Of a DNA stretch of 64,000 bases, positions 14,331 to 47,243 are shown in pieces; within the stretch, counting starts at the first letter, position 1; the number at the start of each line of letters is the position of its first letter. The notes beneath the pieces are model-generated. The model was not told where the DNA came from. It did no database searches and saw only the letters and a list, made by a program, of their open reading frames with translations. The DNA is from a virus: the IMG/VR virus record IMGVR_UViG_3300032291_003679, positions 1-64,000 of that record. The stretch is one strand, 5' to 3'. Position numbers and translations under genes: made by a program.

Positions 14331-14427
14331 GACTTACCTACACCTACTAGGTGCATGCATTGCTCATGCAAAGAGCATGCCGTGAGCATGCCTGCGAGAA
14401 CGAGCAGAACAAGTGTAGGTAAGTGGG

Positions 14428-14688
14428 TCACGACTGGTACTGCGCTTGCTGTGTGTCCAGTGAGTCAATGAGGTTTGCGAGAATCGGCAGAACACTCATG
14501 CCCTCGTTGCCTATGAGAGTAGAGAAGTCTCTCTCTGCCATTCGCACCGTGTACTCCTGTGCAATGTCACGCTTCATGCCTTCGTAGTAGTGACAGAGCC
14601 GTGTGAGTGTGTCGTACAACTCGTCCAGCAGTTCTTCTGTTCGTTCGCTTGTTTCTTTCATCGTGTGTCTTTCTAGTAACGATTCCAA
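14428..14688 (-). CDS. hypothetical protein
   Basis: ORF track; natural composition. Confidence 0.5.
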   Translation of the reverse strand: MESLLERHTMKETSERTEELLDELYDTLTRLCHYYEGMKRDIAQEYTVRMAERDFSTLIGNEGMSVLPILANLIDSLDTQQAQYQS

Positions 14689-14859
14689 GTTATCTAACTT
14701 TCCCCCTTCCCACTACCCCTCACGGAGAACCAAAGGAGTAAAGATTCTCAACGCTCGGGGCAGTGGTGGTACAGGTGTAGGTAACTCCTGTACCAACGCC
14801 TTTGGAGTGGCAGTGAGTGTCCAAGCCCACTGCCACCCCTTAGGGCGACTTACCTACAC

Positions 14860-16422
14860 CTACTCACGCTCGGGGAGTGGTGTTCCCATGTGTTCGTACC
14901 ACACCTTACGGAACATGTGAGGGTACACGCTGTGCGCTTTGCCGTTCACTTTGAGGTTGTGCAACTGCGTAATGGCTTCCTCAATGTGAGGAACAACGAT
15001 GTAGCCGTGCTGTCGTGCGTAGGTCATGCACTGCATGGAAAGCAGTTCAGAGAATCCGTCATTTGCTCCACACACTCCACCGTCTGTTACCCATACGAGA
15101 GGTGTGTTCTTGTATTGACGATTCTTTACGCCCCACTCAATCGCAGGGAAGTCCACGCCGTTGCCGTGTCCGTAGTCAATGTATTCCACATTCTCAACCA
15201 TGCGTCCCTTGTCAGCAACTACCCAAGCGTTTGGGTGTTCTCCACCTGCTCGGTAACGGTCACTGTAAATCATCACGGTTGCGCCTTGTGCGTTCTCAAT
15301 GATTTCTGCAATCTGTTCAGTAGTGAATGACATAGAACCACTTGCGTCAATGATGACCATGCCACCACTGCCACGAACGGTCTTGTCAAAGACACGCTTC
15401 GCAGGGTCGGTCATGTAACGGTGCAATCGGCGTGGTCTGCGTCCCATGTTCGTAGCAATGCGCTTCTTGCCCATTGAGCCGTAGTGATAACGAGGCAGAG
15501 GCTCACGACTGACAACCAGTTCTGCCCACCCTGTCGCTCCACCGTGGTCGGCTGGAACTACTTTCCCATGTGGGTTTCCGTCCTTGTCGCCTTCGCTGTC
15601 TCCGTCCTGATACTCGGCAGAGTGTTCACCTGTCTTGTCACCGTCATCGGACTTACCTACACCTTCGCCTTCGCCATTTCCCTTCCCCTTCTTAGGGTCG
15701 TTCTTGCGAGCCTTCGGTGGTGGGAACGAGGCGAGCCTGTCCACCCATTCTGCTAAACGCTCGGTGTGAACGAATCCGTATGGAGCAATGCCGTCATGGG
15801 TGTCGGTGCTTGCGAGTGTGCGTGACTGGTGCGACTTGCGCATTTCCTTCATTGCTCGCTTGCCAATGTCCAGCAGTGCGTCACCCCATGCTCGGTTGTG
15901 CCTGCGTACTCCGTTCAGGAATGGCTTGTGTCCAGCCGTGCCGACTGTGGCGATACAGGTTGCAACTGCACCTGCCCAATCGTTTGACTTTGCTAGTTGT
16001 TCGCCTGCTGAAAGTTCGTTTCCGTCTGCGAGGTGATTCTTCACATCAAAGCCAGCCTGCTGACAGAGGTAGTTCACTCGTAGTTCCTCAACAACTGTCA
16101 TGGCAGTAGCAGAGGCAATAGAGCGACTAACAAACACTTCCATTTGCTCGGGCGAGGGTGACACTTTCGCATGCATCATTTCATGCGCACGAACTACACG
16201 CTCTAACTCACCGTCTGCTGACGGAGCGAACATGACACGGTTGGCAATGTCTGTACGAGGCTCGCCACGCACTGCACGACAGTCCTCAACGACCCAACGC
16301 TCATGGGCTAGGTCTTTGCGACCAAGCATGTTCGGTTCGGCACGGCTTGCGCCCCTCTCCACATCTGACAGTGGAGAGGGAAACGACTTACCTACACCTG
16401 ATTTGGTGGGGTTAGTGGACAT
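14860..16422 (-). CDS. HExxH metallopeptidase-like plus VWA domain protein (CobT/MoxR partner)
   Basis: HEMMH; DASGSM MIDAS motif; VTDG; adjacent AAA+ gene. Confidence 0.8.
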   Translation of the reverse strand: MSTNPTKSGVGKSFPSPLSDVERGASRAEPNMLGRKDLAHERWVVEDCRAVRGEPRTDIANRVMFAPSADGELERVVRAHEMMHAKVSPSPEQMEVFVSRSIASATAMTVVEELRVNYLCQQAGFDVKNHLADGNELSAGEQLAKSNDWAGAVATCIATVGTAGHKPFLNGVRRHNRAWGDALLDIGKRAMKEMRKSHQSRTLASTDTHDGIAPYGFVHTERLAEWVDRLASFPPPKARKNDPKKGKGNGEGEGVGKSDDGDKTGEHSAEYQDGDSEGDKDGNPHGKVVPADHGGATGWAELVVSREPLPRYHYGSMGKKRIATNMGRRPRRLHRYMTDPAKRVFDKTVRGSGGMVIIDASGSMSFTTEQIAEIIENAQGATVMIYSDRYRAGGEHPNAWVVADKGRMVENVEYIDYGHGNGVDFPAIEWGVKNRQYKNTPLVWVTDGGVCGANDGFSELLSMQCMTYARQHGYIVVPHIEEAITQLHNLKVNGKAHSVYPHMFRKVWYEHMGTPLPERE

Positions 16423-16424
16423 GG

Positions 16425-17147
16425 TTATTTCACTCCGTCCACTGCGAGAGCGTCAAGAATCTGCTTTGCACGATTTCCGAAAGTGAGTTGGCATGCTCGC
16501 TCCATTCCGACTGCCTTGCGCAACTTGTCCAACGCCATGAAAGCACGGAGAGAGATACGAGCCTCGCCACCGTCAGCCATGCGAACGGCGTATCCACGCA
16601 GGTCAGGAGAAAGACGGAGAAGTGCGTTTGGGTGTGGTTCGTTGATACGAACACGAATCGGGAAACGGTCAGCGAGTGCTGTTGGCAGTTCGCTCATGTT
16701 CTCAATGTTCGTGGTCATCACGGCAGAGAATCCGTCAAGTGGACGGACGATTTCACCAGTCTCGGGGTGTTGGAATGTTGCAGATTCAGGAGAATCCAAC
16801 ATGGCAAGAAGTGTTGCGAACACATCGCCACCAGCCTTGTCCACTTCATCAACAATAAGACGACCACCTGTTGTGCCGTTGCCTTTCCATGCTTTGAGAG
16901 CAGAGCCGTCAAGCCACTGGAAGCCACCGTCTTTGCTAGGCATGAAGCCACCAGTTACATCCATGTTGGTCATGTCCTCGGTGCAGACCAAGCGATGTGC
17001 GCCAGCCTCAATGTTTCCGAATGAAAGACCAGCGTAGGTCTTTCCTGTTCCAGCAGGTCCGAACAGAATGATTCTGTCAATACCCGAGTCAAGTGCGTCC
17101 TTGACATCTTGCCAGCACTGTGGCAATACCTCTTGTGTTGTGTCCAT
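16425..17147 (-). CDS. MoxR/CobS-type AAA+ ATPase
   Basis: GPAGTGKT, IVDEVD, ALADRF; start reassigned to MDTTQ after AAAGGAG. Confidence 0.88.
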   Translation of the reverse strand: MDTTQEVLPQCWQDVKDALDSGIDRIILFGPAGTGKTYAGLSFGNIEAGAHRLVCTEDMTNMDVTGGFMPSKDGGFQWLDGSALKAWKGNGTTGGRLIVDEVDKAGGDVFATLLAMLDSPESATFQHPETGEIVRPLDGFSAVMTTNIENMSELPTALADRFPIRVRINEPHPNALLRLSPDLRGYAVRMADGGEARISLRAFMALDKLRKAVGMERACQLTFGNRAKQILDALAVDGVK

Positions 17148-17484
17148 TGTTTGCTCCTTTGTAAGCGATTGGTTAGGGACAAGCAAACCATACCACTCGT
17201 GGGTCAGACTTCCCAACTTCACTTGACACCTTGCAACACAAGGGATTTGGACTTACCTACACCTATTGTTCTGACGATTCCGTGCCACTTACCTACACCT
17301 CTTATGTGTGGTCTGTGCGTTCCGAGCCACCTGCCGTGCGCCCCAACGCCGAGCCAGCCCTTACCTGCCCTGCCACCCCGAGTGCCTGCGCCTTCTTCGG
17401 GTGGAGCCCCGCGTTGTTCGGCGAGTCGGGCGGGGCTTAGGCCGACTTACCTACACCTAATGGGGACTTACCTACACCTAATGG

Positions 17485-17970
17485 TTACTCGTTGTCTTTG
17501 GGGTCTGAGATTCGCCACAGCCCCTTCTTGACCTTGATAAAAAGTGGAGATTCGCTCACATACTTCAGTGTTGTCTGGTACGAGAACCCAGCAACCTCAA
17601 CGAGCTGGTCGGTGGTGTATTCCTCACCTCGGTGTTCGTCTACCCACTTCTCAAAAGTTCCGTATTTATCTTTGCGTCTCTCGGTCTTGATGATTCCGTT
17701 ATTCGCAGTGCTGATGTGGGTAAGATACTTCTTGACGAACTCATTTATTACATCGTCACTGACGGAGTAAAAGCGAAGCATTGATACAGGGTTCCCATTG
17801 CACCCTTCCCTTTGCCACTTCTCCATGACATACAGCGCACGGACTGTCTCTGCAATGCGCCACATTTCCTGATGGTTGGCGTATTTCTGTTGTGGCTTCT
17901 TGTACTTCTTATCAAACTCGGCATACAACCGTGTGTTTTCTTCATGCACGAAATCAATAGTAAAGTTCAC
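17485..17970 (-). CDS. hypothetical protein with C-terminal HTH-like segment
   Basis: GTG start after AAGGA; YTTDQLVEVAGFSYQTTLKYV. Confidence 0.6.
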   Translation of the reverse strand: MNFTIDFVHEENTRLYAEFDKKYKKPQQKYANHQEMWRIAETVRALYVMEKWQREGCNGNPVSMLRFYSVSDDVINEFVKKYLTHISTANNGIIKTERRKDKYGTFEKWVDEHRGEEYTTDQLVEVAGFSYQTTLKYVSESPLFIKVKKGLWRISDPKDNE

Positions 17971-18321
17971 TTCTTTTTCCTTATTTAGATGTACCTGCAG
18001 CGCAACCCGTATGGACTCTAGCACTCGTCATCCAGACTTCCCCAAGTTGCAAATAAAAAATGAAAAACTGTGTTGCCAGTAAGCCCTATGGCTCGACTTC
18101 CACCACCGTCAAAGGGAAACCAACTAGAAAATCCTGCCGCCGGCTCGAGAACTGTTTTTCAAAAAATCAAAAAATCTGACACCCCTTAGTTGCTACGTAG
18201 CATTTTGACCGTTTCGTGCGGGGCTCCATCCCCCAAATGGCGAGGAAAAGAAAGAGGAGTGTCACTGCCAACTGAACAGCGACACCCCTCTTGGTGTAGG
18301 TAACTGAAAGGGGGGACTTAC

Positions 18322-18531
18322 CTACACCTGACCTATAACTACGAACTGGTCTCCTGCTTCCTCAACAAGACCGAGGTTGCTTCCGTTGTCCCATTTGACA
18401 AACACCGTTCCGATGTCGTCCACAAAGTCCACCGTCCCCTCTTCTCCTGATTTGAGTTTCGTGTAGGGGTCTGTGCATGTGATTAGCCTGACCCTCTTGC
18501 CGACTAGGTGTTCGTTTCTTGCTCGCCTCAT
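18322..18531 (-). CDS. DUF4314-like protein
   Basis: GKRVRLI..DPY..GTVDFVDDIGTVFVKWDNGSNLGLV. Confidence 0.8.
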   Translation of the reverse strand: MRRARNEHLVGKRVRLITCTDPYTKLKSGEEGTVDFVDDIGTVFVKWDNGSNLGLVEEAGDQFVVIGQV

Positions 18532-18674
18532 GCTGGAACCTCGCTTTCTGTATTGGTGCTGATTAGTAGGCGAATGTCTAAGAGCAGGTCGGTCATCTCT
18601 ACTGATGACACAATGTCCCTGCCCGAGCAGTGCGCTATTGCTTTATCCACTAGGGCGACAAGTTCAGTATCCAT
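18528..18674 (-). CDS. small hypothetical protein (48 aa, MDTELVALVDKAIAHC...)
   Basis: ATG directly after a 14-mer copy; ATGA coupling to the next gene. Confidence 0.55.
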   Translation of the reverse strand: MDTELVALVDKAIAHCSGRDIVSSVEMTDLLLDIRLLISTNTESEVPA

Positions 18675-18681
18675 GACTTAC

Positions 18682-19377
18682 CTACACCCCCTTGTCTTTC
18701 TTTTTCGGAGCCTTGTCAAGCATGTCTTTGTAAGCAAGCGTCTTGGTGGCAAGGTGCATGTAGCCAACCGTGGCAAGTAAAGCGTCAGGAATACGACCAT
18801 TTGTTTCATGCTCTTTGTCCACTGTGAATGTGTTGCACATTGGTTCTTCGTCAAACTCGGGAACTCCGTGGTCGTCATAGCGATAGAGGCTCGCAATGCT
18901 CCACACATTCGTAGCGTTCCAATCCACGGCAGTCATTATGATTCCTTCACGAACATCAGAAAATGGATTTTCTTTGTAGTCCTTCTCAAAGTCGCCTCTG
19001 TCGTGGTTATGTGCCTCTTCTTCGGTCATCTCTGACTTTGCGTATCCCTCAACGAGTAGAACAATAAAGTCAAACGGACGAATCGGGAGTGACTTCACAA
19101 CATCTTCGTAAGCGTCAAAAATGTCCTCTTTGTGAATGAGAGGAATCATCGCCAAGTGGTATGGCTTTGAGAGTGAGAACTCATGTTGGTAGTCCACGCA
19201 TGCTTCGTGGTCGGGATTACTGTCATTGCTCTCAACGGCAACAAGGAACAGTGGTGGACTGTCTTGCATTGGCTCGTCTTTGCACATTTCTGTCTTTGCA
19301 AAGACGGCTCGGTTGAGCAAATCTTCCATTATTGCTCTGATGTCGTTGTCAATAACTTCATTCTCTTGTGGTGTCAT
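18682..19377 (-). CDS. hypothetical protein
   Basis: GAAAGGGG RBS; own promoter; stop codon lies inside a 14-mer. Confidence 0.75.
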   Translation of the reverse strand: MTPQENEVIDNDIRAIMEDLLNRAVFAKTEMCKDEPMQDSPPLFLVAVESNDSNPDHEACVDYQHEFSLSKPYHLAMIPLIHKEDIFDAYEDVVKSLPIRPFDFIVLLVEGYAKSEMTEEEAHNHDRGDFEKDYKENPFSDVREGIIMTAVDWNATNVWSIASLYRYDDHGVPEFDEEPMCNTFTVDKEHETNGRIPDALLATVGYMHLATKTLAYKDMLDKAPKKKDKGV

Positions 19378-19499
19378 TGGTTGCCCCTTTCAGGCGTTTT
19401 GTGTTCATTGGAAGCATACCACTTGTGGGACAGACTTCCAATAGTTACCTACACTGGATAGTGGGAGTCGGTACAAGCCCCCACATGCCAGCCATTTTT

Positions 19500-19724
19500 C
19501 TACTTCTCTCCGAGCAGTGTGTTCACCGATACTCCAAGAGCATTACTTACAGCGAGCAGTGTTTCCACACTCGGCGTGAACTGCCCATTCTCAATACGGT
19601 TCACCGTTTTTCGGTCAAGACCTGCACGGTTGGCAAGTTCCAACTGTGACCAGCCGTTCTCGCTTCTGTGAACTCGTACGATTTCTGAGATTTGCTCAAT
19701 GGATTTAGTTGATGATGTTCCCAT
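19500..19724 (-). CDS. XRE/Cro-C1 HTH transcription regulator
   Basis: WSQLELANRAGLDRKTVNRIENGQFTPSVETLLAVSNAL. Confidence 0.9.
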   Translation of the reverse strand: MGTSSTKSIEQISEIVRVHRSENGWSQLELANRAGLDRKTVNRIENGQFTPSVETLLAVSNALGVSVNTLLGEK

Positions 19725-19787
19725 GTTGGGATTCCTTCTTTCTTTATTGGGGGATTATTTGTGTGTGTGTAGTTACCTACACCTATT

Positions 19788-20528
19788 TCAGACAGACGAA
19801 ATGAATGTGCGTGGCGTTCTCCCTTCTTTATCGCAACGGCGAACATAGGCGAGGTGCTTCTTGTATTCGTTCATGCACAAAGACATGTCGGTATCGCATT
19901 GGTCTAAAAGGTGGTGGTTCCACTCGGAGTGTGCTTCCCACCATTCTTCCATTGCGTCATCGGGGGCGTCCTCTGCCTCTGCTTTTTCACAGAGTTTGCT
20001 CAACTCGGGGGTGAGATGTTGGGGGTCACGCTCGCCAGCCTCAATGATGATTCCATTATGAAACACTGACCAACAGATGAACGCCATTGACTCTTCATCA
20101 GAGCAGGTTCCAAAAATAAGATTTGGATAAAGAGTAGAAATCTTTTGGATTAGTCCGTCGGCAGGCGACCATGCAGATTCGTAACGCACAGAAATCGTGT
20201 TTTTTACAGGGGTTGTGTCGTCAATCTCGGGTCGGCATGCACCCCACTTACTTCCCCAAGTTTCGCAAGCGTCTAAGTACCCATCAAATCCATCACTTGC
20301 GCTAGTGAACGCAGTGAATGTAGTTTCTACTCCATCAGCGTTAGTCGTCTTGATTTCCTTTGACCCTCGTGGGTCTAGTGGTACGAGTTTATTCAGGTCG
20401 TACTCAACGGTAACTCGTGATTTATCTCCCTCAACTTTGACATCGGCAACTGTAATGTCTTTGACGAACTTGGCGAGTTCTCGCTTATTCCCCATGACGG
20501 TCATGTATGTGTAACACCAGTTAGGCAT
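19788..20528 (-). CDS. DUF1281/YubB-like protein
   Basis: MPNWC..WGSKW..ESAWSP motifs; GAAAGG RBS. Confidence 0.75.
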   Translation of the reverse strand: MPNWCYTYMTVMGNKRELAKFVKDITVADVKVEGDKSRVTVEYDLNKLVPLDPRGSKEIKTTNADGVETTFTAFTSASDGFDGYLDACETWGSKWGACRPEIDDTTPVKNTISVRYESAWSPADGLIQKISTLYPNLIFGTCSDEESMAFICWSVFHNGIIIEAGERDPQHLTPELSKLCEKAEAEDAPDDAMEEWWEAHSEWNHHLLDQCDTDMSLCMNEYKKHLAYVRRCDKEGRTPRTFISSV

Positions 20529-20811
20529 TTGATTTTCCTTTCGGTTTGGTAGATACACAGAGCGTACCACCCTCGGGACAAACTTCCCCGAGTTACCTAC
20601 ACCTCTCTTCCACCACCGTCAAAGGGTTTAGTGGGGTGGGCTACCTGCTGCGCCCCCCGTCACGCGAGACCTCTTGCCCCCGACCCCGACTTGCCTGCCG
20701 AGCACCCCCAACTGCCTGCTCGTGCTGGAGCCCCGGCCGACTCGGAGCATGCGGGGCTTCTTGTCAAAGTATCCAATCGGATACTTTTTGTGCTGGAAAA
20801 GTTACCTACAC

Positions 20812-21114
20812 CTAATCGGCTGGGTCGGCAGAGAGCAGGGAAACAGCCCTGACCCTGTGACCGACTCTCTTGGAGTCGTGAATGAATGTCAGTAGGTTGC
20901 GTAGGCTGGGAATGTAGGTAAATGTCTCGTCCACAGACCAGCCGTAGTCGTCAAATAGGGCTTCACTCTCTGGCTCGGGAGCGAAGGAAATGGTAAAAGT
21001 GTCATCACTGGTGTTGCCCGACCAGCGCACAACTATTGACGCCCCAACCAGCAACTCATGTCCTAAACGGACACGGCGAAAGTATGAGATAAGGAGAGAG
21101 ATGTACAGGAACAC
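20812..21114 (-). CDS. hypothetical protein
   Basis: Start and stop both overlap 14-mer copies. Confidence 0.5.
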   Translation of the reverse strand: MFLYISLLISYFRRVRLGHELLVGASIVVRWSGNTSDDTFTISFAPEPESEALFDDYGWSVDETFTYIPSLRNLLTFIHDSKRVGHRVRAVSLLSADPAD

Positions 21115-21124
21115 TTACCTACAC

Positions 21125-21631
21125 CTATCTTTCCCACTCCTTGTAGACCTGCATTGCTGGCTTGTGTCTGTCCTCGGCAGAGAGTGACCCAACGAACTTG
21201 GTCAGTTCGCCAAGAATGATGAGATAGTCCACTTCCGTCAGACCATGCTCGTCCACTATCCATTTCACGATGTTGTCGTAATCGTCCCAAAGAATCTCCA
21301 TAGCCTGAACTGCTGTTGTCGCCAGCGTGTAGTGGTTCTCCCACAGTAAGTCTCGCACTTCTTCTCTCATGTCTGGACTGGTCATAGACTTACCTACACC
21401 TTCTTTGTTGCATTTACACATGTCGGCAACATCACACTGACACCAGTCTGCTGTCATGTCGCAGTAGAAACAATAGCGAGTATTCTCGTCTTTCTCGGGA
21501 ATCAGTCCACAAGTTGGACAGAGTGGGCGATACATGTCGTCAAGAATCTCGGAAAGTCGTTTCATTTCTCCCATTTCAGTCCTCACATTCACAGTCGTAC
21601 AAATCTTCTCCACATTCATCGCAGAGGTCAA
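21125..21631 (-). CDS. hypothetical protein (Cys-rich N half joined through GVGKS to a second domain); true start probably near 21574
   Basis: ORF track; internal 14-mer followed by ATG at 21385. Confidence 0.55.
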   Translation of the reverse strand: MTSAMNVEKICTTVNVRTEMGEMKRLSEILDDMYRPLCPTCGLIPEKDENTRYCFYCDMTADWCQCDVADMCKCNKEGVGKSMTSPDMREEVRDLLWENHYTLATTAVQAMEILWDDYDNIVKWIVDEHGLTEVDYLIILGELTKFVGSLSAEDRHKPAMQVYKEWER

Positions 21632-21881
21632 GTTCGTCTAGTTCTACATCGTCAATGTCCAAACCTTTATCATGGGCAAACCATGTCATAACGGTCAGAA
21701 GTAGTTTGTCGTAGTCGCCAGAAGTTGCTTCCTTGTGGAACTCGTCCCACTCGTGATGAATCTTGTTCTGCTTCATGATTCGGCTCACTCGTCCGAGAAT
21801 GGCAAACGCATTGCCGTCCTCTCCAACAAGTGGAATGTTGATGTTTGGATACTTCGGGTTGATTATGGTGTAGGTGCTCAT
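21576..21881 (-). CDS. conserved phage hypothetical protein
   Basis: LVGEDGNAFAILGRV..EATSGDYDKLL motif. Confidence 0.75.
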   Translation of the reverse strand: MSTYTIINPKYPNINIPLVGEDGNAFAILGRVSRIMKQNKIHHEWDEFHKEATSGDYDKLLLTVMTWFAHDKGLDIDDVELDELDLCDECGEDLYDCECED

Positions 21882-22093
21882 TGTGACTGTTCTCCTGTTT
21901 CGTCGTTGATAGCAAATGCGTCATGAATCTTTGCCCCAGCAAGTTCTGCTTCCTGACGGGCAAACTCCCATGCGAGTTTCTTTGCTTCTGCCATGCTCTT
22001 GGCTTCCACTGTTGTGGATTCGTGCCATTCAGCAAGCCCTTGTGGTTCCTGCTTGGTCAAGAAGACCATCAGTTCGTATGTTTGTGTTGCCAT
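21878..22093 (-). CDS. hypothetical protein
   Basis: GAAAGGG RBS; own promoter. Confidence 0.7.
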   Translation of the reverse strand: MATQTYELMVFLTKQEPQGLAEWHESTTVEAKSMAEAKKLAWEFARQEAELAGAKIHDAFAINDETGEQSQ

Positions 22094-22460
22094 GATTTCC
22101 CTTTCGCATTGGCTTCGCCATCACAGTACCACACAGGGGACAGACTTCCCAAAGCACAGAGTTACCTACACCCACACGGTCTTCCACCACCGTCATTGTG
22201 TTGAGAGATACCTGCTGCGCCCACCCGTTGTTTTTTCATTTTTTTGTTTTTTCAGTTTTTTCGGGTTACCTGCTGCGCACCCCCACGCGTTCCAGCGACT
22301 GCTTCCCGAGGAAGCCCCGGCCCGATTCGTGGTCCGATTCGTAGCGGGGCTCCTACTCCAAAGCCCGACTCGGGAGTCACTTATCTAGCCGTGACCCGAG
22401 AGTTACCTACACCTATCCCCCCTCGCCCAACCGAGACGAGAGAGAACAGGTGTAGGTAAG

Positions 22461-36803: not shown

Positions 36804-36884
36804 GTCAGTCCCTCCCTCGTGGGGATTTCTTTAGAAGTAGATAAGTAAGCAAGAGCACTGCCAGTCCAAGGAAAGCGCTGCAAC

Positions 36885-37070: not shown

Positions 37071-37254
37071 TGTTTCTCTCCTGTGTCTAGGTACATGAGG
37101 AATAATAGCCCCACTTATGGAATCTTGCAACAGTTTGCTGCAGCAGGTCATTATGTGACTAGTATGTGCCTAGGACCGGTGGGGCTCGCGCAACCTCTCT
37201 CCTTTCGGTACATCCCCAGTGCGAGCCTCGCCGGTTTCTACTATTCTAGAAACA

Positions 37255-39171: not shown

Positions 39172-39620
39172 TCGTTGTTCGGCTTTGACTCAGTCGTGTC
39201 GACACCCGAGATTATTTCCTGAGCAATCAACTTCGCATACTTTCTGCGAAGACGCCAAATCTTTCGATTCATCTCAATCAGTTCTTTGCTCATGCGAGCC
39301 TTGATGATTGCGTCGTCATCGAATACGCCATGAATAGTAAACAGCGCATCGTGCAGTTCTGTGTCTTCGATGAGAATGTCTGAAATCCACCCAGCACGAT
39401 TGTCGATTGCCATCATCAATTCACACATTCCCTCGACACCAAACTCGTCGAAAAGTCTGTTTACGACAATGTTGCAGAAGTGTCTTCTGTACAACCTTTG
39501 GGCCTTCTGTGATTGAGACATGAACTCTGACAGCCATACTGCAAGTTCTGCGCTCGAACGTTCATCTCCACTTTCATAGGCAGAGTCGATGAAGTCGTCA
39601 TCATCTTCGTCATCATGCAT
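39168..39620 (-). CDS. hypothetical protein
   Basis: GGGAGAGG RBS. Confidence 0.65.
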   Translation of the reverse strand: MHDDEDDDDFIDSAYESGDERSSAELAVWLSEFMSQSQKAQRLYRRHFCNIVVNRLFDEFGVEGMCELMMAIDNRAGWISDILIEDTELHDALFTIHGVFDDDAIIKARMSKELIEMNRKIWRLRRKYAKLIAQEIISGVDTTESKPNND

Positions 39621-39673
39621 GACGCCTCTCCCTTATGTCCGGAACTCTACCCAAATGATAACAGCAGTAGACA

Positions 39674-40699
39674 TTACACTGCTGACAAGAGATGGTCTTG
39701 CGCTTTTACCTTTGCTCGTGACACCCATGAATTCGCACTCATCGAAGCAAGCGCACGTTCTGTCAATGTTGCGTCACGATAGTGGTCAAGGTATTCACCA
39801 ATCGCATTGACAAGCGACCAGCCGTTATACCCATAGTTCTTTGCGTTGTTGTCATTCGCATACACGGCACGAACTAGCGCAACTACCTCTTCACGGTTCT
39901 TTTGCTGACGTTCGGTTGCATCTTTTGCTAATGGAAACACGGCGTCAAGAGTCTTGTCGAGAATAGGTGACGATGCAGGGACATTGATTGATAACAGTTG
40001 TTCTGCTGTGCGAGAGAACTCACGAGCCCATGCGCTAGAAATGTTGAGAACTTCGTTTGCCTGTTCCATTGCTCTATCTGCATTGCGTGTATGTCTTGCA
40101 GTGAATACTCGCTTCGCTGACGAAACGCCAGCAATCACTGTGTTTTTACACACGGCACGAATGCTTGTGTTTGCGAACGTGATTGCCGTCTTGCCGTCGT
40201 GACCGTTATGCACTAGCAGGTAACGCTCGATTGAGTCGTTGATACCCATGGGGTCGATGATGAGGGAACCCATGTCAATAGATGCAAAGAACTCTCGACC
40301 ATCATGCAGGACTCCACACGTATCTACAACGGCGTCTCCCCCCGATGCGCCAACGATGTCGAGCGCATAGTCAAGACATTCACGATTTTGCTGAACGACA
40401 TAGCGTGTACCAACGGTGGCGAGACCGTCGAACGAACCGTCTGCGTTCACCCGTACGGTTGCACGGGAATCGGGAACAAGAATCGTAGTGCCATCAGGCT
40501 GACGAATCGGCTCACCGGTATCGTCACATACGGCAACCCGTGTTGTCACTACGTCGAAATCTGCCTGCGCTGCTTGGAGCATTGCCTCTGCTGTTTGCAG
40601 ACCTTTCATGGCTGTACCCATTCGGTGCCACGGGATTTCTCGGTCTACATACGCCATGCGTACTGTGCCGTCTTCGTTGATTTCTAACTGATGAGCCAT
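39674..40699 (-). CDS. DUF932/DUF945-family phage/plasmid protein
   Basis: PWH.G, YVVQQN, NGHDG, IRAVCKNT, RHT, NAIGEYLDH. Confidence 0.85.
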   Translation of the reverse strand: MAHQLEINEDGTVRMAYVDREIPWHRMGTAMKGLQTAEAMLQAAQADFDVVTTRVAVCDDTGEPIRQPDGTTILVPDSRATVRVNADGSFDGLATVGTRYVVQQNRECLDYALDIVGASGGDAVVDTCGVLHDGREFFASIDMGSLIIDPMGINDSIERYLLVHNGHDGKTAITFANTSIRAVCKNTVIAGVSSAKRVFTARHTRNADRAMEQANEVLNISSAWAREFSRTAEQLLSINVPASSPILDKTLDAVFPLAKDATERQQKNREEVVALVRAVYANDNNAKNYGYNGWSLVNAIGEYLDHYRDATLTERALASMSANSWVSRAKVKAQDHLLSAV

Positions 40700-40911
40700 A
40701 GTGTCTCCGTCTCTCTATCGTGTAGATAAATCTATCTGAAAGATGTGTCGTGTAGGGGAAGTGTAGGTAAGTAGTGCGGGGCTCCCGAAGGGAGGAGGCT
40801 CACCTGTGCGCTGTGAGACGGGTGAGCACGGCAGGTGACTCGGGAAGCCTGACCCACCCGTGGTACTCTGTGGGTGTCGGGGGGAAAGTCTCCCCGACAA
40901 AGGAGTTCATC

Positions 40912-41418
40912 ATGTTCCCAGCATCTATCCACCAAGCACTCACAGGCGAGGCGACCACCGACCTCGGTAACGGGGCATACTCTGTGGGGCAGGTTCCCAC
41001 AGAGGCAGAGGCGTTCGTCAAGTCGTACGAGCCATGCGAAAACTCACCCGTCCATACCGTCCCCACCGACCCAACTGTCGTCACGCTCGCCGAGGTGACC
41101 ACCTACCTGCGCCTCGTTGCCGAAGGTACAAGCAAGGACGCAGGATTTGCAGGGAGCCTCGTGGCATACGCCGAGCGCACGGGAACGCTCACCGAGAAGC
41201 AGGCGAAACACGCTCGCCGACTCTACGCTAAATGGCACCGTGCCTGCGAGTGGCTCGCTCGCCACAAGAACGGACAGCACGCGTGGAAGTACGCAGGGAC
41301 AAAGTGTCACAACAGCAACTACGACCTCGGCACCTACGCCGAAACCTCGTACTACCAGTGCGAGCAGTGTGGGAAGTGGAAGTCGCAGTACACGAACAAG
41401 AACTACTCGGGGGACTGA
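40912..41418 (+). CDS. hypothetical protein
   Basis: AAGGAG RBS; own promoter; C-terminal CxxC. Confidence 0.7.
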   Translation: MFPASIHQALTGEATTDLGNGAYSVGQVPTEAEAFVKSYEPCENSPVHTVPTDPTVVTLAEVTTYLRLVAEGTSKDAGFAGSLVAYAERTGTLTEKQAKHARRLYAKWHRACEWLARHKNGQHAWKYAGTKCHNSNYDLGTYAETSYYQCEQCGKWKSQYTNKNYSGD

Positions 41419-41450
41419 CCCGAAGAGGTGTAGGTAACCCAAGACGGACA

Positions 41451-41512
41451 GCCCCCACCCCACGCCCCCACCCCACGCCCCCACCCCACGCCCGAACACC
41501 CACGCCCCCACC
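41451..41512. repeat. 13-bp C-rich tandem repeat (GCCCCCACCCCAC) x3 plus degenerate copies
   Basis: Seen directly in sequence. Confidence 0.8.
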
Positions 41513-41672
41513 TGCCTCCGAGAGCAGAGGGCAAGCCGAGCGAAGCGAGACGGGAGAAAGCGAGGAACCAAGCGGGGCTCCTACCCCAATGACGGTGCAT
41601 GGGTGCATACACGGGTGGGCACGGCAGGTAGTCCGATTTGGAAGTCTGAACCGTTAGTGGTACATTTATGGC

Positions 41673-42881
41673 ATGACCGAAGTTTCATCTGCCTCAATCG
41701 CCTTTGACCTGCACACGCGATACTTGGAATATCGCAAGAGCCACCCAACGATGGACAGGCTCTTACATCTCGGATACTTTCGCGCCATGTGGGCAGACGA
41801 CGATACGCCTATTCTGACCCGTGAGGCATTAGAGAGCGAAGCAAAAATGGGCGCAGTTCATCACGAAGTACATCGCGCACTAGACGACACAATCATCGCA
41901 CTCGGTGACACCGTGTTTCTCACTGACGACTTGCGTGAGTTGGTCAAGACGGCAGAAGTAACAATGCCTGATGAGGTGTTATTTGAGACGGACATTTTCA
42001 CCCCGTGTGGATTCATCGTGATGGAGACTCCACTGCCACAAACGGTGAAGTCGCTTATCAAGGCCGAAGATTTTGACGAAGTGCTAACACTCTCAAAAAA
42101 GTACGGCGCAATCATCACTGGAACGCGCAACGACACTGAACCTGACGAAGATGGAAACTATGTAGGCGTAGAGAACTGGGAAGTGCAGGCGTTTGCATGG
42201 GCTGACGCGAGCGCAATAACACCCGAAGCACTTTCGGAAATAGAGAGACGGTTTGGGAAAGACAGCAACGAGTACGCCTTCGCTCAAAACATTTCTAAGA
42301 ACTCAGGAAATGACAGTGCCATTCAGGTGCGTGTTTTCGGAACTCTTATCTCTACCACTGTCAATGGGCTAACGATAGAAGTTCCACAACTACACCTTGC
42401 CCCTTTACGACTAATGGATATGTACGCGTTCTTCTACGGCGAAGATGGAATGGAAATAGAACGCGAAGTAAGTGGTGTAGGTAACTTTTCAGAGGCCGAC
42501 CTGAACGAGTCCTCATGGGAACGAAGCAGAGAAGTGCGCCGATTTCTTGTTGCTCTGTTCCGTCTCATGGACGAGTATGTGGACATTGACAGGCACGGCC
42601 TGCATCGCGCTTTCGGAAAGCGAGCAACCCGTGGTGGCCGAACAGGTGACACGAAGAATGTCACGATTCTCTCACTGCGTCGTGCGCTCGGTGATGATGA
42701 AGAAGGAATCGGTGCAGGAGCGAAGGTGACGCTCGCGCATCTCGTCCGTGGCCACTGGCGCAATCAGTGGTATCCATCACAGAAGATGCACCGTGCGAAA
42801 TGGATACGCGCACACCGTCGTGGTGGCAGTGCTGGTGATGAAGTGACTGCACGGCCTCGCATCATCAAGGTGGACAGATAG
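41673..42881 (+). CDS. conserved phage protein with C-terminal VRGHWR motif, leaderless
   Basis: HLVRGHWRNQWYPS..WIRAHRRG; ATG 6 nt after TACATT. Confidence 0.8.
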   Translation: MTEVSSASIAFDLHTRYLEYRKSHPTMDRLLHLGYFRAMWADDDTPILTREALESEAKMGAVHHEVHRALDDTIIALGDTVFLTDDLRELVKTAEVTMPDEVLFETDIFTPCGFIVMETPLPQTVKSLIKAEDFDEVLTLSKKYGAIITGTRNDTEPDEDGNYVGVENWEVQAFAWADASAITPEALSEIERRFGKDSNEYAFAQNISKNSGNDSAIQVRVFGTLISTTVNGLTIEVPQLHLAPLRLMDMYAFFYGEDGMEIEREVSGVGNFSEADLNESSWERSREVRRFLVALFRLMDEYVDIDRHGLHRAFGKRATRGGRTGDTKNVTILSLRRALGDDEEGIGAGAKVTLAHLVRGHWRNQWYPSQKMHRAKWIRAHRRGGSAGDEVTARPRIIKVDR

Positions 42882-42947
42882 AACCTGTGGACTTACCTAC
42901 ACCCGTAGCAGGCTCGCTATCAGGTGTAGGTAAGTCCGTTGGCCGTA

Positions 42948-43139
42948 TTAGTCTCGCGTTGGCGTGATTGCGAAACTGACTGAACGCTCGTCGTTGCGAG
43001 TCTCTGGAAAGTAGAACGCAAGACCGAGCCACGCTTGCGCTTCTCGCTTGCTGGCGAAGCCCGTGGCCTCAACCGTTGAGCGAGAGCGTCCGTTCGCGAG
43101 AACGGCAACGCGTGTGATGGTGAATGTGGAATGTGCCAT
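42948..43139 (-). CDS. small hypothetical protein
   Basis: GAAAGGGG RBS; own promoter. Confidence 0.6.
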   Translation of the reverse strand: MAHSTFTITRVAVLANGRSRSTVEATGFASKREAQAWLGLAFYFPETRNDERSVSFAITPTRD

Positions 43140-43378
43140 GATGAACCCCTTTCGTTCGGCAACACACACAGAGTACCACCGATGGAACAGACTTTCCAAA
43201 AGTGCATGATTACCTACACCTATTCGGCGCAACACTCGCACTCTATGCGAGGACAACCGAACGAAGTGAGGGCGTCAGCACCGGGGCTCCCACTCTCCAA
43301 CCATGCATAAGCACCGTGCCGAGACTTACCTACACCTAGTAGATGAGTGCCGACACGGTGAATACGCCGTGTACCGAA

Positions 43379-44083
43379 TCAGTATGCGTGTGGCGCGTCT
43401 ACTTCCATAGGTGCACGACACACATGACAGAGTGGGGACTCTGAACCGTCCTCACCGAATAGAGGTGTTTCGTCATCAGCGAGCGAGTACCCATGAGACT
43501 GCGAAAGCATTTCACCGTAGTTGCATTCCACTGAATGTTCTTCATCGTTCGGGCAAGTGAGCGAGTAGTTTGCGTTGTCGTATGGGAACGACTCTGCCAT
43601 GTCTACCGTGACACGGAATGCACGAGGACGCGTGTAGCCACCACGAACATCGCAACCCCCGTGAATCTGCAAGAGCACGAACACTTCACCACCGTCCGAG
43701 AATGTCACGCCCTGCAATGTCTGCGCGAGTGAGTCCTCTCCGTTGTATGTGTTCCATGTGTGTGCACTGTCGTCCTTTTCTGTTGCGAACTCTTGTGCGA
43801 GACCGAGCCACCCGTCATCAGGGTTCTCTTCACAGAACGCACGGAACTGCTTGTCCAAGAGTGGTGCATACTCCAATCGTTCTGAAAGGTAGTGATAGAC
43901 CGAGAGCGTCACGCCCCACTTGTCTGCCCATGCGCGAGGTTGCGCGTCCCACTCTGCGAGTGTGCGACCTGCGTTCTGTTCCCAGTGTCTCCCGTAGGCT
44001 CCACCACTGTCCAAGATGTGTCGTCCCGTAGGCTCCGTGAGCATTTCTGCGATTACTTCGCGTGTGCGTGTTGTTGTCTTCAT
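43379..44083 (-). CDS. conserved phage hypothetical protein
   Basis: HILDSGGAYGRHW; HGGCDVRGGYT. Confidence 0.75.
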   Translation of the reverse strand: MKTTTRTREVIAEMLTEPTGRHILDSGGAYGRHWEQNAGRTLAEWDAQPRAWADKWGVTLSVYHYLSERLEYAPLLDKQFRAFCEENPDDGWLGLAQEFATEKDDSAHTWNTYNGEDSLAQTLQGVTFSDGGEVFVLLQIHGGCDVRGGYTRPRAFRVTVDMAESFPYDNANYSLTCPNDEEHSVECNYGEMLSQSHGYSLADDETPLFGEDGSESPLCHVCRAPMEVDAPHAY

Positions 44084-44397
44084 GACTTACCTACACCCTT
44101 GTAAGGGTATGACGGGTGTGCCCGTCGCCCCTTGTGGCGAAGTGTGGCGATTTCGTTGCGTGACCACAGCGTGAGAAGTGTGCTGACAATCGTGCCAACA
44201 ATGGTGACGAACAATCCTGCGAAAGTATCGTACGCAGTGTGACTCCAATAAGAGAGAACAACAAGGTACGCACCAAGCGTGGTCACGAGATACGAAGCCC
44301 CCGTGATGAATCGGTAGATGAATGTTGGATAGTTGTCGTCCAACCAGTTAGTAGCCCGTGCGTCTGCTCGGTCTAGTTTGTCAATAATGTTTGCCAT
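44080..44397 (-). CDS. 2-TM membrane protein
   Basis: Start MANIID after GAAAGGG; ends GVGKS. Confidence 0.65.
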   Translation of the reverse strand: MANIIDKLDRADARATNWLDDNYPTFIYRFITGASYLVTTLGAYLVVLSYWSHTAYDTFAGLFVTIVGTIVSTLLTLWSRNEIATLRHKGRRAHPSYPYKGVGKS

Positions 44398-44568
44398 GTG
44401 GATTCCCTTTCCGTTTGAGTTGGCAAGATGAGCGTACCACAGTGGGGACAGACTTTCCGACCTACCTGCCGTGCCTCCCCGATGTGGCGAGGGGTGGGAT
44501 ACTTCCCCTGCTGGGAGCCCCGTTGTTTTTGACTCTTCTGTCATAACAGACACGAGTCGGTGACTTAC

Positions 44569-44826
44569 CTACACCTCGTCATCACCACGCAGGTAGTTGG
44601 CACGCATCACTTCCGTGCTGGCCTCACCTGTTTGGTCAAGCGTCGTGATGTCGTACACAGCACCACAGCGATAACACAGGTACGAAAAACCGTCCCATGC
44701 ACCCGTGGCGTCGGGGGCGATTATCTCTCCTGTTGGGAGACACGAGTAGAAGCCGTCGATGTCAGGTTCATTACCACATTCACAGACGAGCCAGTCTGCT
44801 GTAGTGCGTTCGAGATTGAGTGTCAT
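44569..44826 (-). CDS. small Zn-binding protein
   Basis: CECGN..CYRCG; stop lies inside a 14-mer. Confidence 0.7.
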   Translation of the reverse strand: MTLNLERTTADWLVCECGNEPDIDGFYSCLPTGEIIAPDATGAWDGFSYLCYRCGAVYDITTLDQTGEASTEVMRANYLRGDDEV

Positions 44827-45302
44827 GATGGTTCCTCTTGATGGGTGATGGAAGATACATCATAGGGGTTTTCTTCAGGGTCGTCATGCCACACGCCATC
44901 AGGCCATGCAGTACGTGTGTGTACTCCATGAACGTTCTTGCCGAAGATGTCAGTGGCCTGCCATGCATGTGTGCAACACGGCACTGGGGTGTCTCGTGAG
45001 TCAGGGTGACAGTTCTGTCCAATGTCTTGAGCGAGTAGAGGGAACGTAGCGAGGAACTTGGCAACACAGTCATGACAAAGAATCCATTCACGTGTACGCA
45101 GGCTTCCTGTCAGTACACGAACGTTGTCATCGAATCCACCGTAGTAGCCGAATGTGTCAAAGGGTAAGACCCAACCATTGTCAGGGTATGACTCCTGTTG
45201 TGTACACGGCACTGATGCACAGCATGCTGAACATCGTGCGTGCTTGACGACTGGTGTAGATGGTGTGATGAATGGTGACTGTGTGTCAGGCGTATCGCTC
45301 AT
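44823..45302 (-). CDS. Cys-rich hypothetical protein, leaderless
   Basis: ATG 7 nt after TACTCT. Confidence 0.65.
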   Translation of the reverse strand: MSDTPDTQSPFITPSTPVVKHARCSACCASVPCTQQESYPDNGWVLPFDTFGYYGGFDDNVRVLTGSLRTREWILCHDCVAKFLATFPLLAQDIGQNCHPDSRDTPVPCCTHAWQATDIFGKNVHGVHTRTAWPDGVWHDDPEENPYDVSSITHQEEPS

Positions 45303-45396
45303 GCGAGAAAGAGTACCAGTATGGGGACAGACTTACAACGTACCTGCAGTGCAACCCATGAGACGCCCGTGGCACTTGCGTCGTTCATGCTGATGG

Positions 45397-45762
45397 TCAG
45401 GTGACGATGTGTCCTGATGTCATGCGATACAGCACTGCGTAGCAGAAGCGTCTGCGCTGTGTGATGCTCCACTCCACCTGATAACGATGGTGTCTGTTGA
45501 GCATGTCGATGTCTGCCTGCGAACGGTGTATGCCTAGTTCCATCTCTGTCTCTATCATGATGGACATGATGTTCACCTCACTACCCGTGGCACTGCGAGG
45601 CGTCACACCTGCCTCTCGGCACGCCTGAAACACCTTGGTCATGAACATCGAGCATGCGAGCATGTGCTCAAGCTCTTCATCGTCAGTGAGGTAGTCATTG
45701 GTCAAGCGTGATACACGAATGGCCTGATGTACCTTGCGCTTAGGTATGTAGATGCCTGACAT
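45397..45762 (-). CDS. hypothetical protein
   Basis: ORF track. Confidence 0.55.
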   Translation of the reverse strand: MSGIYIPKRKVHQAIRVSRLTNDYLTDDEELEHMLACSMFMTKVFQACREAGVTPRSATGSEVNIMSIMIETEMELGIHRSQADIDMLNRHHRYQVEWSITQRRRFCYAVLYRMTSGHIVT

Positions 45763-45974
45763 GAGGCAAGGGTATCACTCACTAGGTGAGCGTGTCCCCT
45801 ATCCCCATTTGATTTCTTTCGTCTGTTTCTCTTGGGGCTCTACTGCTACTACATCAAGCATGCTCCCCTGATTGAGTAGAGAGTGAACCATTGAGATTGC
45901 TTCGTCAATGTTCATTGGGGCGTCAAGGTCACTGCGCTTACGCACTGCGACGGTGATTCTGTATGTATCCATGC

Positions 45975-46193
45975 TTAGCACCATACAGCCTTCCATAGTC
46001 GCGCAACGCTTTGTGCTTGCTGAGGTGATTGACAAGGGATACGTCTGATGGTGTGTTGCGTCCCCTCTGATGAGGGTAGGGACAACCACACCTCCACGTC
46101 ATCACCAATGGCATTGACGTGAGTGACTGTCCCCTCTGATGAAAGGTCAGTGATGTGAGAGGTGAGTAGGTCTAGTGATGTCATGAGGGACAC
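45975..46193 (-). CDS. small hypothetical protein
   Basis: ORF track; followed by a second small gene at about 45799-45972. Confidence 0.45.
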   Translation of the reverse strand: MSLMTSLDLLTSHITDLSSEGTVTHVNAIGDDVEVWLSLPSSEGTQHTIRRIPCQSPQQAQSVARLWKAVWC

Positions 46194-47243
46194 AGTACAT
46201 CAGGGGTGGTACATAGTCAATGGGGTGACGATGATGTGGGGTAGCGATGTTCAGGGGGGTATGGTGTTACTCGTATGACACCCGTGACACCTCGCAAACA
46301 TTCACGCTCTCACTCACCTATGGCACGCCTATGGCAAGGGTGGTGCGACCTCTATGACAAGTGGTGGTCACGATGGTCACGATGGAGCAATGGCATAGGG
46401 CTTGACCCCTTTCCTCTCGCAATCGCAATCGGGTGTGTGGTGATGGCACTGCTCACACTGCTGTCTATTGGTCGTGTGTAGTACACCCGTGGCCCCCTGC
46501 GATTGACCTTACCTACACCTCAGGCGAACAGGTACGGCTTGACCTACTGGCCTTGCGCTTGTGGCATAGACGACACGCTTGCTTGCCTCATACATTGCGA
46601 GCATCACGCTATGCGCTTGCCTCACTAAGACATACGTCATTGGTAAACGATTGACGCTTGTCTGTTGTCTGCTTTGATTGGGCTATGTGCTTTCGCATAG
46701 CGTCAAGCACAACTCGGACAGTGCTCTCGCATAAGTCGTATGACCCACAGAACCCGAGAACCCGAAGGACCCGAAAACCCGAAAGGCATTGCGCTGACCT
46801 TGCTTGTATGAAAGGCAACGACGAACGACCAACGCACTTCGTGTGCGTGCGTCATTGAGTGGTGAGAGCAGGGGTATGTGTGTGTTTCTCTGTGTAGACA
46901 AGACACTGCTAGGGGCGAGACGAAGGGTGGCGTTTGGTTGTGACGTTCGCCTTCGCTGTGCTCCTCTATTGACGAGATACCTGCTGTGCTTCCCCACTCT
47001 TGGCTCTGCTCTGCTTGCTTCGTTCTGTCCACAGTGGTCGACGATTGACACGGTCACGCCTCTGTCCACAGAACTGACCATCGACGCCACCAGAGAGAAG
47101 GCACCCCCTTGGAGCCCCGCCGGCTTTCAGTCGAACCCCCAGCGCCGGGGGGAGCTAAAAATCAAATTTTTATGGCCACCTTTTTTTATCTTAATTTATC
47201 CAAACCGCTTGTGTTCGTCCCCAGGGCTGTGTACTATGTGCTC

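Follow-up and report, generated by a model that had tools for sequence, protein, structure and literature searches.

An array of about 25 predicted promoter-led gene units with shared repeats and a lineage-specific oriented word in a large lake virus

What kind of system strings dozens of small genes together between a few repeated elements, and what might those elements do? The question is raised by the window, the first 64 kb (64,000 nucleotides) of a complete 158,021-bp record of an uncultured lake virus (IMG/VR record IMGVR_UViG_3300032291_003679; the whole genome is termed G000). Here, a region called the array consists of about 25 units, each led by a predicted promoter, and its spacers are filled by four repeated elements: M1, an oriented 13/14-mer; M2, a promoter-like module; M3, the arms of hairpin modules; and M4, an 11-mer (Table 1). 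Intergenic DNA makes up 30% of the array, which is unusually high for a phage, and 71% of this DNA lies within 45 bp of a motif. The original prediction saw in the region an expandable, integron-like array of host-takeover and anti-defence genes, reshuffled by recombination among the repeats. The explanation preferred here, which is given a somewhat better than even chance of being right, is that the array is an early host-takeover region of about 25 moron-like units, in which M1 is the site of a lineage-specific factor and the modules are substrates for recombination.

The count of about 25 self-promoted mini-operons between shared repeats agrees with what was found: 25 copies of M2, about 15 hairpin modules, and 70 copies of M1. 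M2, which has the form GGAAGTCTG-N8-GTGGTAYnnT and is found from 17.2 to 45.3 kb, in every copy runs in the same direction as the gene that follows. Across all 25 copies, the TG, the TA, and the closing T vary little or not at all; they correspond to an extended -10 sequence (TGnTAnnnT), while the 9-bp box is located at about -33 to -25. Downstream of some 20 of the 25 copies, at a distance of roughly 33 to 65 nt, is an ATG with GAAAGGGG before it. Three others (27377, 41640, and 45314) have the ATG directly after the -10 sequence, suggesting leaderless mRNAs; such mRNAs are typical of Actinobacteria. The same design is found at orthologous places in three relatives, G001, G003, and G004, which belong to a family of 130-160-kb IMG/VR contigs found by protein-guided searches. 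Exact matching of the 14-mer against IMG/VR gave, among the matches listed, just single chance hits. M2 is thus taken to be a promoter, a call made from its anatomy. A core site (M1 or M3) is present 2-16 nt upstream of 23 of the 25 copies, so that the earlier claim that each unit opens with a symmetric module or a 14-mer holds for all but the M2 copies at 17191 and 18019, which have neither.

Copies of M1 (GGTGTAGGTAAGT[C]) were counted at no more than one mismatch. There are 70 copies of ACTTACCTACACC in the window versus 0.07 expected, and these are all of the copies in the entire genome, falling within 11,765-46,519. Among the 45 unpaired sites, 38 point along local transcription, 6 lie in strand-switch zones, and just 1 is anti-oriented; nearly all anti-oriented copies are partners in inverted pairs, which occur at only about 13 places. 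Twelve of the 70 sites overlap a stop codon, 4 abut an ATG start, about 8 are intragenic, and the others are intergenic. A role as a Chi-like protector of DNA ends was ruled out, since the orientation tracks gene direction rather than the genome ends.

Comparison with the relatives reveals that the word is private to each lineage. Every near relative has its own high-copy word, confined to the equivalent 30-40-kb region, and together these make up six lineage variants of nnnTAGrTAAsT (Table 1). The core is AGGTAAST in the window and AGATAAST in sister lineages: the former is present 74 times in the window array and not at all in the arrays of G001 and G003, while the latter is present 5 times in the window array, 96 times in G001, and 74 times in G003. 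When the window is aligned with G001, about 45 of some 50 aligned M1 sites carry the G001 word in place, some of them within coding sequence. The window and G002 have the word in common; in their M1 columns they are 92% identical, versus 77% for other intergenic DNA and 79% for genes. By this comparison, M1 is under purifying selection. Concerted change at tens of orthologous, selected sites implies in turn that the word is read in trans by something whose specificity has altered, and the orthology of about 45 of the 50 aligned sites indicates that they are maintained signals, not scars of recent insertion.

Whether the word is read in DNA or in RNA is less simple. The M1 word contains TAG and TAA in two of its three frames, and its strict sense orientation, the overlaps with stop codons, and the 4 copies that place AGGT at Shine-Dalgarno (SD) distance where they abut an ATG would suit a processing, stability, or translation signal recognised by a nuclease, an RNA-binding protein, or a complementary RNA. 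Inverted M1 pairs fold as 13-17-bp hairpins, which could be terminators or stabilisers, and there is a precedent in the start-associated sequences (SAS) of Cluster K mycobacteriophages, an oriented 13-mer with a proposed translational role (PMC3203893). However, just 4 of the 70 sites fall 12 nt or less from a start codon, and thus M1 is not chiefly a translation signal like the Cluster K SAS. In addition, 23 of the 25 predicted promoters have their core site upstream of the transcript rather than within it, and sites upstream of promoters in divergent spacers (35615, 40760, and M3 at 32864/32979) are outside any sense transcript. In G003, the M1 word is even fused into the promoter, its AAGTC occupying the -30 box. 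The G003 fusion and the sites in divergent spacers indicate that the promoter-proximal copies, at least, act in DNA, and a reading of M1 as a signal that works in RNA is considered unlikely.

The promoters of single-subunit RNA polymerases resemble M1 in length, asymmetry, orientation, and a switch between lineages at few positions. M1 could therefore be the promoter, or a pause or termination signal, of an unrecognised phage polymerase with which it co-evolves, as the promoters of T7, T3, and SP6 do; the genome also encodes giant virion proteins with unassigned modules. Against this, no RNA polymerase or sigma region 2 was detected (the T7-type search matched no control either and so proves little), and the three giant proteins have no RNA polymerase family in PHROGs. 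An N4-like virion RNA polymerase was ruled out, as the giant proteins gave no polymerase match. Furthermore, some copies of M1 follow genes or lie within them, some form inverted pairs, and some directly precede a separate, good host-type promoter. This explanation is accordingly regarded as quite improbable.

The other repeats are M3 and M4. M3 (ACGGGTGGGnnCGGCAGGTARGT) shares the core AGGTAAGT with M1, and it forms the inverted ACGGGTGGGnnCGGCAGGTA arms of about 15 symmetric modules, each with a GGGAGCCCCG...CGGGGCTCC hairpin between the arms; M2 adjoins such modules. The symmetric modules that had been predicted are real: three of the four that were folded give hairpins of about 140 nt with energies of -69 to -82 kcal/mol and z scores of -3.7 to -6.4, and the fourth (z -1.05) is not significant. 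In G001 (L264+L265, local 16440-16480), GTGGGAAA is repeated four times in tandem, with an M1 pair on one side and a hairpin module on the other; the spacer that holds these copies is short in the window. M4 is invariant in all lineages and is the commonest 11-mer in distant relatives; the copy at 10232 provides a TTGACG -35 element, with TAGAAT 17 nt downstream.

A hairpin module may be present or absent at an orthologous spacer. Together with the terminal inverted arms of the modules and copy numbers that vary between lineages, this is what would be seen if the repeats were selfish elements, akin to miniature inverted-repeat transposable elements, that spread through spacers and do nothing for the phage. 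Yet the sites are orthologous, better conserved than their surroundings, oriented with transcription, and switched in concert between variants. The repeats are also welded to promoters at short distances, and no transposase is seen among the array proteins. A purely selfish origin is thus held to be extremely improbable.

The array also differs from the rest of the genome in composition. Its GC content is 50-58% versus 42-49% in the flanks, and 4-bp palindromes are depleted: the observed/expected ratio (sum of all sixteen, second-order expectation) is 0.29-0.47 in 16-36 kb, 0.54-0.69 in 36-48 kb, and 0.75-1.09 everywhere else. G001 and G003 show the same trough at the place of the array, and G002 shows it at its broken ends. 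As had been noted, units differ in oligonucleotide usage. Within 14,331-30,600, TCGA, CGCG, and GGCC occur 2, 5, and 6 times versus 81, 52, and 52 expected; in 30,660-31,826, TCGA (14 versus 11) and CGCG (21 versus 20) are not depleted, nor is GGCC in 33,060-33,680 (6 versus 4). The normal TCGA and CGCG content of the gene at 30,660-31,826, which encodes 388 residues, is as expected for a recent arrival in the trough. First-injected or leading regions of phages are highly variable, carry anti-defence genes, and decide restriction sensitivity (PMC12455610; for T5-like phages, PMC10644984). The palindrome trough and these precedents are the grounds on which the array is read as a leading, and presumably early, region. 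Most of its genes are small and have no Pfam or PHROG function. The host-takeover or anti-defence role originally proposed for them gained no support beyond their position, their small size and lack of known function, and the avoidance of palindromes.

Do the units move? The order of the backbone is kept in the window, G001, G003, G004, and two further lineages, A and B, while G005 is largely scrambled. Upon this backbone, G001 has unit 35 inverted and in another place; units 30, 31, and 25 occupy other slots in A/B; and units 27, 42, 47, 73, and 93 are duplicated or inverted in some lineages. Relative to G003, breaks affect 6 of 31 adjacencies within the array versus 4 of 90 elsewhere, with no such difference relative to G001. 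Lineages A and B, which are 88% identical, differ by the presence or absence of one whole unit with its junction within M1-M2. Comparing unit order among the relatives thus gave neither a fixed order nor breakpoints that avoid the repeats, and unit gain, loss, relocation, and inversion, with homology ending at repeats, are all observed, in line with the reshuffling that had been predicted.

The clearest case of exchange suggested by these comparisons is the cassette of the 388-residue gene (core promoter, 5' untranslated region, and gene). Its copies in the window and in the distant lineage A are 89% identical in nucleotides and 92% in amino acids, compared with mostly 66-82% for the lineage-A backbone; two stretches neighbouring the cassette (28.9-29.8 kb) are also about 89% identical to lineage A. 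The homology extends from between M1 and the -30 box to about 8 nt past the stop codon, and both flanks carry the M1 variant of the lineage in question. Lineage A has the cassette on the other side of a unit-42-like gene (window 32288-32788); B, G001, and G003 lack it. Flanking by modules is seen for some of the differences between relatives: the unit indel of A/B, the 388-residue cassette, and units 30, 31, and 35.

These differences could be the work of a site-specific system, as in integrons, with its own enzyme for cutting cassettes out and inserting them at the 14-mers or the symmetric modules. Cassette-sized lineage differences do end at the 14-mer, the same cassette is present in a neighbouring slot of another lineage within that lineage's own 14-mers, and a lineage-specific site implies a lineage-specific reader. 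Integrons, too, are small gene cassettes separated by a repeated element. However, they depend on an IntI-type tyrosine recombinase encoded beside the array, promoterless cassettes served by a single promoter, and attC, an imperfect inverted repeat ending each cassette on its 3' side, and the array has none of the three: its cassettes have their own promoters, and the asymmetric 13-14-mer is not attC-like. The absence of an integrase, noted before for the window, holds for the complete 158-kb genome, where neither tyrosine nor serine recombinases (PF00589 and PF00239) were matched although controls were matched in 14/14 and 13/14 genomes. Moreover, most sites are orthologous and stable, backbone order is kept, many sites lie within operons or genes, and several indels are away from motifs. 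The integron-like mechanism is therefore judged very unlikely. Nor does anything link the SNF2-family helicase or the DUF932 protein, formerly named as candidate enzymes, to the repeats; both are backbone genes. Of the helicase's earlier label, HARP-SNF2, the SNF2 domain is solid, while the HARP match (E 2e-4) is below the Pfam cut-off.

The system that the array most invites comparison with is the promoter-early stem-loop (PeSL) cassettes of T4-type phages (Arbiol et al. 2010, PMC2839356; Comeau et al. 2014, PMC4122927), and the comparison made in the original prediction is apt. In both, modules of a promoter and a stem-loop are present in tens of copies in a plastic region, before small unknown genes, and units bring a promoter and a terminator. 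Genes that differ between relatives are flanked by modules in T4-type phages, as are some of those in the array. The evidence for shuffling in the array, drawn from genome comparison, is the same in kind and strength as that first offered for PeSLs, and falls short of a mechanism. In contrast to PeSLs, the array belongs to an unrelated phage lineage, its promoters combine an extended -10 with a -30 box instead of the sigma-70 consensus, its hairpins are palindromic modules of about 140 nt, and PeSLs have no counterpart to the lineage-specific oriented 14-mer.

For M1 itself, the nearest likeness is to the operators and stoperators of Cluster A mycobacteriophages, of the L5 gp71 type (PMC6550527; PMC9283540). 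These, too, are asymmetric 13-bp sites that number in the tens and lie at promoters or in short gaps between genes; they share with M1 the orientation with transcription, the syntenic positions, and the lineage-specific consensus (PMC6550527). However, Cluster A phages have 20-30 sites spread over a 50-kb temperate siphovirus, compared with 70-96 in 32-40 kb of a 150-160-kb myovirus here; no gp71 homologue, integrase, or repressor was found; many M1 copies form inverted pairs or tandems; and M1 is a putative binding site. The Cluster K SAS and extended SAS (ESAS) (PMC3203893) share with M1 an oriented, asymmetric 13-mer that is limited to the non-structural part of the genome and sometimes holds the upstream stop codon, and SAS are accompanied by inverted repeats whose consensus differs by subcluster, as here. 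They differ in lying 3-7 bp before start codons and containing an SD core.

The array units themselves are self-promoted and differ in composition from their neighbours, as do the morons of lambdoid phages. Morons, as Juhala et al. in 2000 are said to have described them, are one-gene insertions into the backbone, each supplied with its own promoter and terminator. The array units likewise have their own promoter and terminator between backbone genes, and the 388-residue cassette has the deviant composition; but lambdoid morons are scattered, while the array is a contiguous run of about 25 units that share one promoter design. Finally, the first-step-transfer DNA of T5 and the leading region of Autographiviridae (PMC10644984, PMC12455610) also hold variable small early genes and are regions in which restriction-site content matters, although the array is 32 kb, about 20% of the genome, and its early entry is presumed. 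The architecture, which is unusually regular, is best described as a variant of these known kinds, not as a new kind of system.

These comparisons suggest how the array might work. It would probably be the first-exposed region of a large myovirus with a likely actinobacterial host. Each unit would comprise a host-type extended -10 promoter (TGnTAYnnT), with the 9-bp box, kept across lineages, at about -30 instead of a -35 element; a GAAAGGGG ribosome site in a short leader, where there is a leader at all; one or a few small genes, of unknown function; and hairpins at the unit end. M1, which marks unit borders but is also found between and inside genes, would be the putative DNA site of a lineage-specific phage factor. 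Such a factor might control the whole region at once, most simply by repressing the promoters and blocking read-through after the early programme, much like the repressor and stoperators of Cluster A mycobacteriophages. The modules, repeated some 25-90 times, would be substrates for ordinary homologous or short-homology recombination, which could add, delete, move, and invert whole units between and within lineages, as for T4-type PeSL cassettes. A bolder possibility, for which the chances appear slim, is that M1 is the address of a trans-acting, fast re-specifying reader, protein or RNA, that both switches the leading region on or off and sets the borders of cassette exchange. If so, this would be a recombinase-free, "addressable" cassette system with a private code per lineage, a code that would insulate the early programme, as heteroimmunity does, yet allow the capture of genes from relatives.

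Several results weigh against the early host-takeover reading with M1 as a factor's site and the modules as recombination substrates. The first concern recombination. Of 29 non-homology edges, 14 are near motifs, versus 30% for random positions (p 0.03) and 71% for intergenic positions; breakpoints are no nearer to repeats than any intergenic position, and their enrichment at motifs, not significant against intergenic DNA, was dropped as an argument. Since the spacers are full of motifs, it is partly trivial that homology should stop at a conserved one, and in the A/B pair, three of four clean indels are away from motifs. The part of the earlier claim that places reshuffling at the repeats is to this extent weakened. 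Others concern the promoters and the timing. A scan for the E. coli consensus gave 3 sites versus 10 in shuffles; it is for want of a -35/-10 consensus match that the promoter call leans on anatomy. The variable spacing between M1 and M2 would suit a roadblock or operator better than a phased activator, and proves neither. Helical phasing of tandem M1 copies (19-21 bp), seen in the window but not in relatives, was also dropped. Early timing and first entry of the array are presumed, and the ends of the assembled record are arbitrary.

The last of these results is that the reader of M1 was not found by comparison of helix-turn-helix (HTH) recognition helices or by identity-contrast, site-pattern, or L5 gp71 searches. 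The XRE-type, HA-domain, and LuxR-like HTH proteins (Table 1) were ruled out as obvious candidates, as their recognition helices are constant across lineages. A genome-wide site-pattern screen gave no protein with the expected pattern (window = G002 versus G001 = G003): the counts for the three pairings were balanced (346, 314, and 396 sites), and only a mosaic structural block emerged. A search of the genome with L5 gp71 (L303:832-1383), made without a positive control, gave nothing at E<=10. The identity-contrast screen yielded two small acidic proteins without a known domain, at 56029-56274 (-) and 53944-54165 (-), which, unlike the genome average, are 81% and 75% identical to G002 versus 53% and 57% to G001; they were set aside, having no DNA-binding domain. 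The invariant HTH proteins appear to fit M4 better than M1. The HA-domain protein is a possible reader of M4, and the LuxR-like protein is a candidate middle or late activator.

The setting of the array is consistent with a large virus of an actinobacterial host. A tail sheath, a portal, and collagen-like fibres are encoded in the genome, as are ribonucleotide reductase, a primase, and three giant multi-domain proteins; this gene set identifies the virus as a large myovirus. The "terminal repeat" of the record is an assembly overlap of only about 121 bp, so coordinate 1 is arbitrary. Actinobacteria are the likely host, given an LPXTG anchor, an Rpf-type transglycosylase, the leaderless starts, and a helicase whose nearest cultured matches, about 32% identical, are in Arthrobacter phages; a megablast search of GenBank phages gave no match. 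GATC is absent from G000, G001, G002, and G003 (145-158-kb genomes), versus about 400 expected, a lack far more pronounced than the mild avoidance seen for other palindromes beyond the array. To the immediate left of the array, 11992-12675 (-) encodes a DUF1599 ("nucleotide modification associated domain 1") protein, which hints at a DNA modification that could protect the rest of the genome. Within the array, 35803-36126 (+) encodes a histone-H1-like Lys/Ala/Pro-rich protein with short AKKxP tandem repeats and a sub-threshold HC2 match. The 600 bp of 30050-30660 have no minus-strand gene, and a plus-strand frame there (30221-30580), kept in G001, G003, and G004, could be a genuine antisense gene or else a non-coding element that is conserved.

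Table 1. Features of the array, related proteins, and lineage words (window coordinates unless noted).
Feature	Position or sequence	Strand	Remark
Array	14331..46520		About 25 promoter-led units (promoters predicted); 4-bp palindromes depleted
M1 copies, n=70	11765..46519		Starts: 11765, 14332, 14412, 14774, 14848, 15651, 16386, 17251, 17287, 17445, 17466, 18293, 18316, 18676, 19771, 20591, 20800, 21113, 21388, 22160, 22401, 22449, 22757, 23300, 23445, 23509, 23529, 24064, 24386, 24425, 25034, 25655, 25868, 26226, 26558, 27000, 27037, 27068, 27406, 27426, 27934, 28202, 28236, 29238, 29267, 30042, 30587, 30605, 31412, 31890, 31910, 31929, 32115, 33688, 33985, 34010, 34722, 35068, 35086, 35111, 35615, 36581, 40760, 42474, 42891, 42923, 43324, 44085, 44563, 46507
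Anti-M1 / M1 / anti-M1 cluster	26990..27095	-	After gene end; 17-bp hairpin, z -4.35
Word of window and G002	GGTGTAGGTAAGT		
Word of G001	GGAGTAGATAAGT		
Word of lineages A/B	AGAGTAGATAACT		
Word of G003	AGGTAGATAAGT		
Word of G004	TAATAGATAAGT		
Word of a further clade	AATAGATAACT		
M2	17191..17213	-	No M1/M3 upstream; leads AAA_5 ATPase and 520-residue protein genes
M2	18019..18041	-	No M1/M3 upstream; M4 at 18098
M2	19417..19439	-	
M2	20565..20587	-	M4 and M1 precede
M2	22127..22149	-	M4 and M1 precede
M2	23270..23292	-	
M2	24025..24047	-	Weaker match
M2	25008..25030	-	
M2	25630..25652	-	M4 and M1 precede
M2	26734..26756	-	Directly after M3 arm of symmetric module
M2	27377..27399	-	After M1 doublet; ATG 6 nt past -10 hexamer (leaderless)
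M2	27904..27926	-	
M2	28690..28712	-	
M2	30016..30038	-	
M2 of 388-residue cassette	31859..31881	-	After M1 triplet
M2	32835..32857	-	Divergent pair around symmetric module
M2	32993..33015	+	Other member of divergent pair with 32835..32857
M2	33707..33729	+	
M2	34133..34155	+	
M2	35588..35610	-	Upstream M1 (35615) in divergent intergenic region
M2	40843..40865	+	
M2	41640..41662	+	ATG 11 nt after TA of -10 hexamer
M2	43174..43196	-	
M2	44435..44457	-	
M2	45314..45336	-	Weaker -30 box
Hairpin module, one M3 arm	23335..23430		
Symmetric module	24125..24290		Weaker fold, z -1.05, not significant
Hairpin module	25747..25850		
Symmetric hairpin module	26758..26902		Inverted M3 arms around GGGAGCCCCG/CGGGGCTCCC; -81.7 kcal/mol, z -6.35
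Symmetric hairpin module	27985..28130		z -4.3
Symmetric hairpin module	28714..28848		
Symmetric hairpin module	30140..30270		
Hairpin module, one M3 arm	31986..32082		
Symmetric hairpin module	32855..32995		Between divergent promoters; z -3.7
Hairpin half-module with M3 arm	41573..41635		Before promoter 41640
Hairpin half-module with M3 arm	44463..44522		Before promoter 44435
M4 (TTGACGGTGGTGGAAGA), nine copies	10232, 10540, 11969, 12658, 13970, 18098, 20608, 22182, 25680	-	All co-oriented
388-residue cassette (core promoter, 5' untranslated region, gene)	30652..31878	-	TCGA/CGCG normal
Conserved 520-residue protein and AAA_5 (MoxR-like) ATPase	14860..17147	-	First operon of array
ParA-like P-loop protein	33060..33680	+	GGCC not avoided; 34-46% identical in relatives
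SNF2-family helicase, conserved backbone gene	37219..39171	+	HARP match sub-threshold
DUF932 protein, conserved backbone gene	39674..40699	-	DUF932 match solid
HA-domain and sigma-region-4-like HTH protein	13574..13957	+	Left array border; HTH invariant in all lineages
XRE-type HTH protein	19500..19724	-	In all lineages; recognition helix invariant
Protein with LuxR/sigma-r4/Mor-like N-terminal HTH, 222 residues	G000 69330-69998 (locus L274:11330-11998)	-	Adjoins primase gene

What is new in the array is the orientation of M1, its concerted, lineage-private variants, the array-specific depletion of palindromes, and exchange at the level of the unit. The private code and the regional avoidance of palindromes are the parts most worth following up, and the six natural spellings of one regulatory word provide a handle for finding its reader. 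Leading and early regions house host-takeover and anti-defence genes, and beyond a few model phages little is known of how such regions are controlled and diversify. The array offers some 60 small genes of unknown function as candidates for anti-defence screens, and it carries the ideas of PeSL shuffling and stoperator-like silencing to phages outside the groups that gave rise to them.

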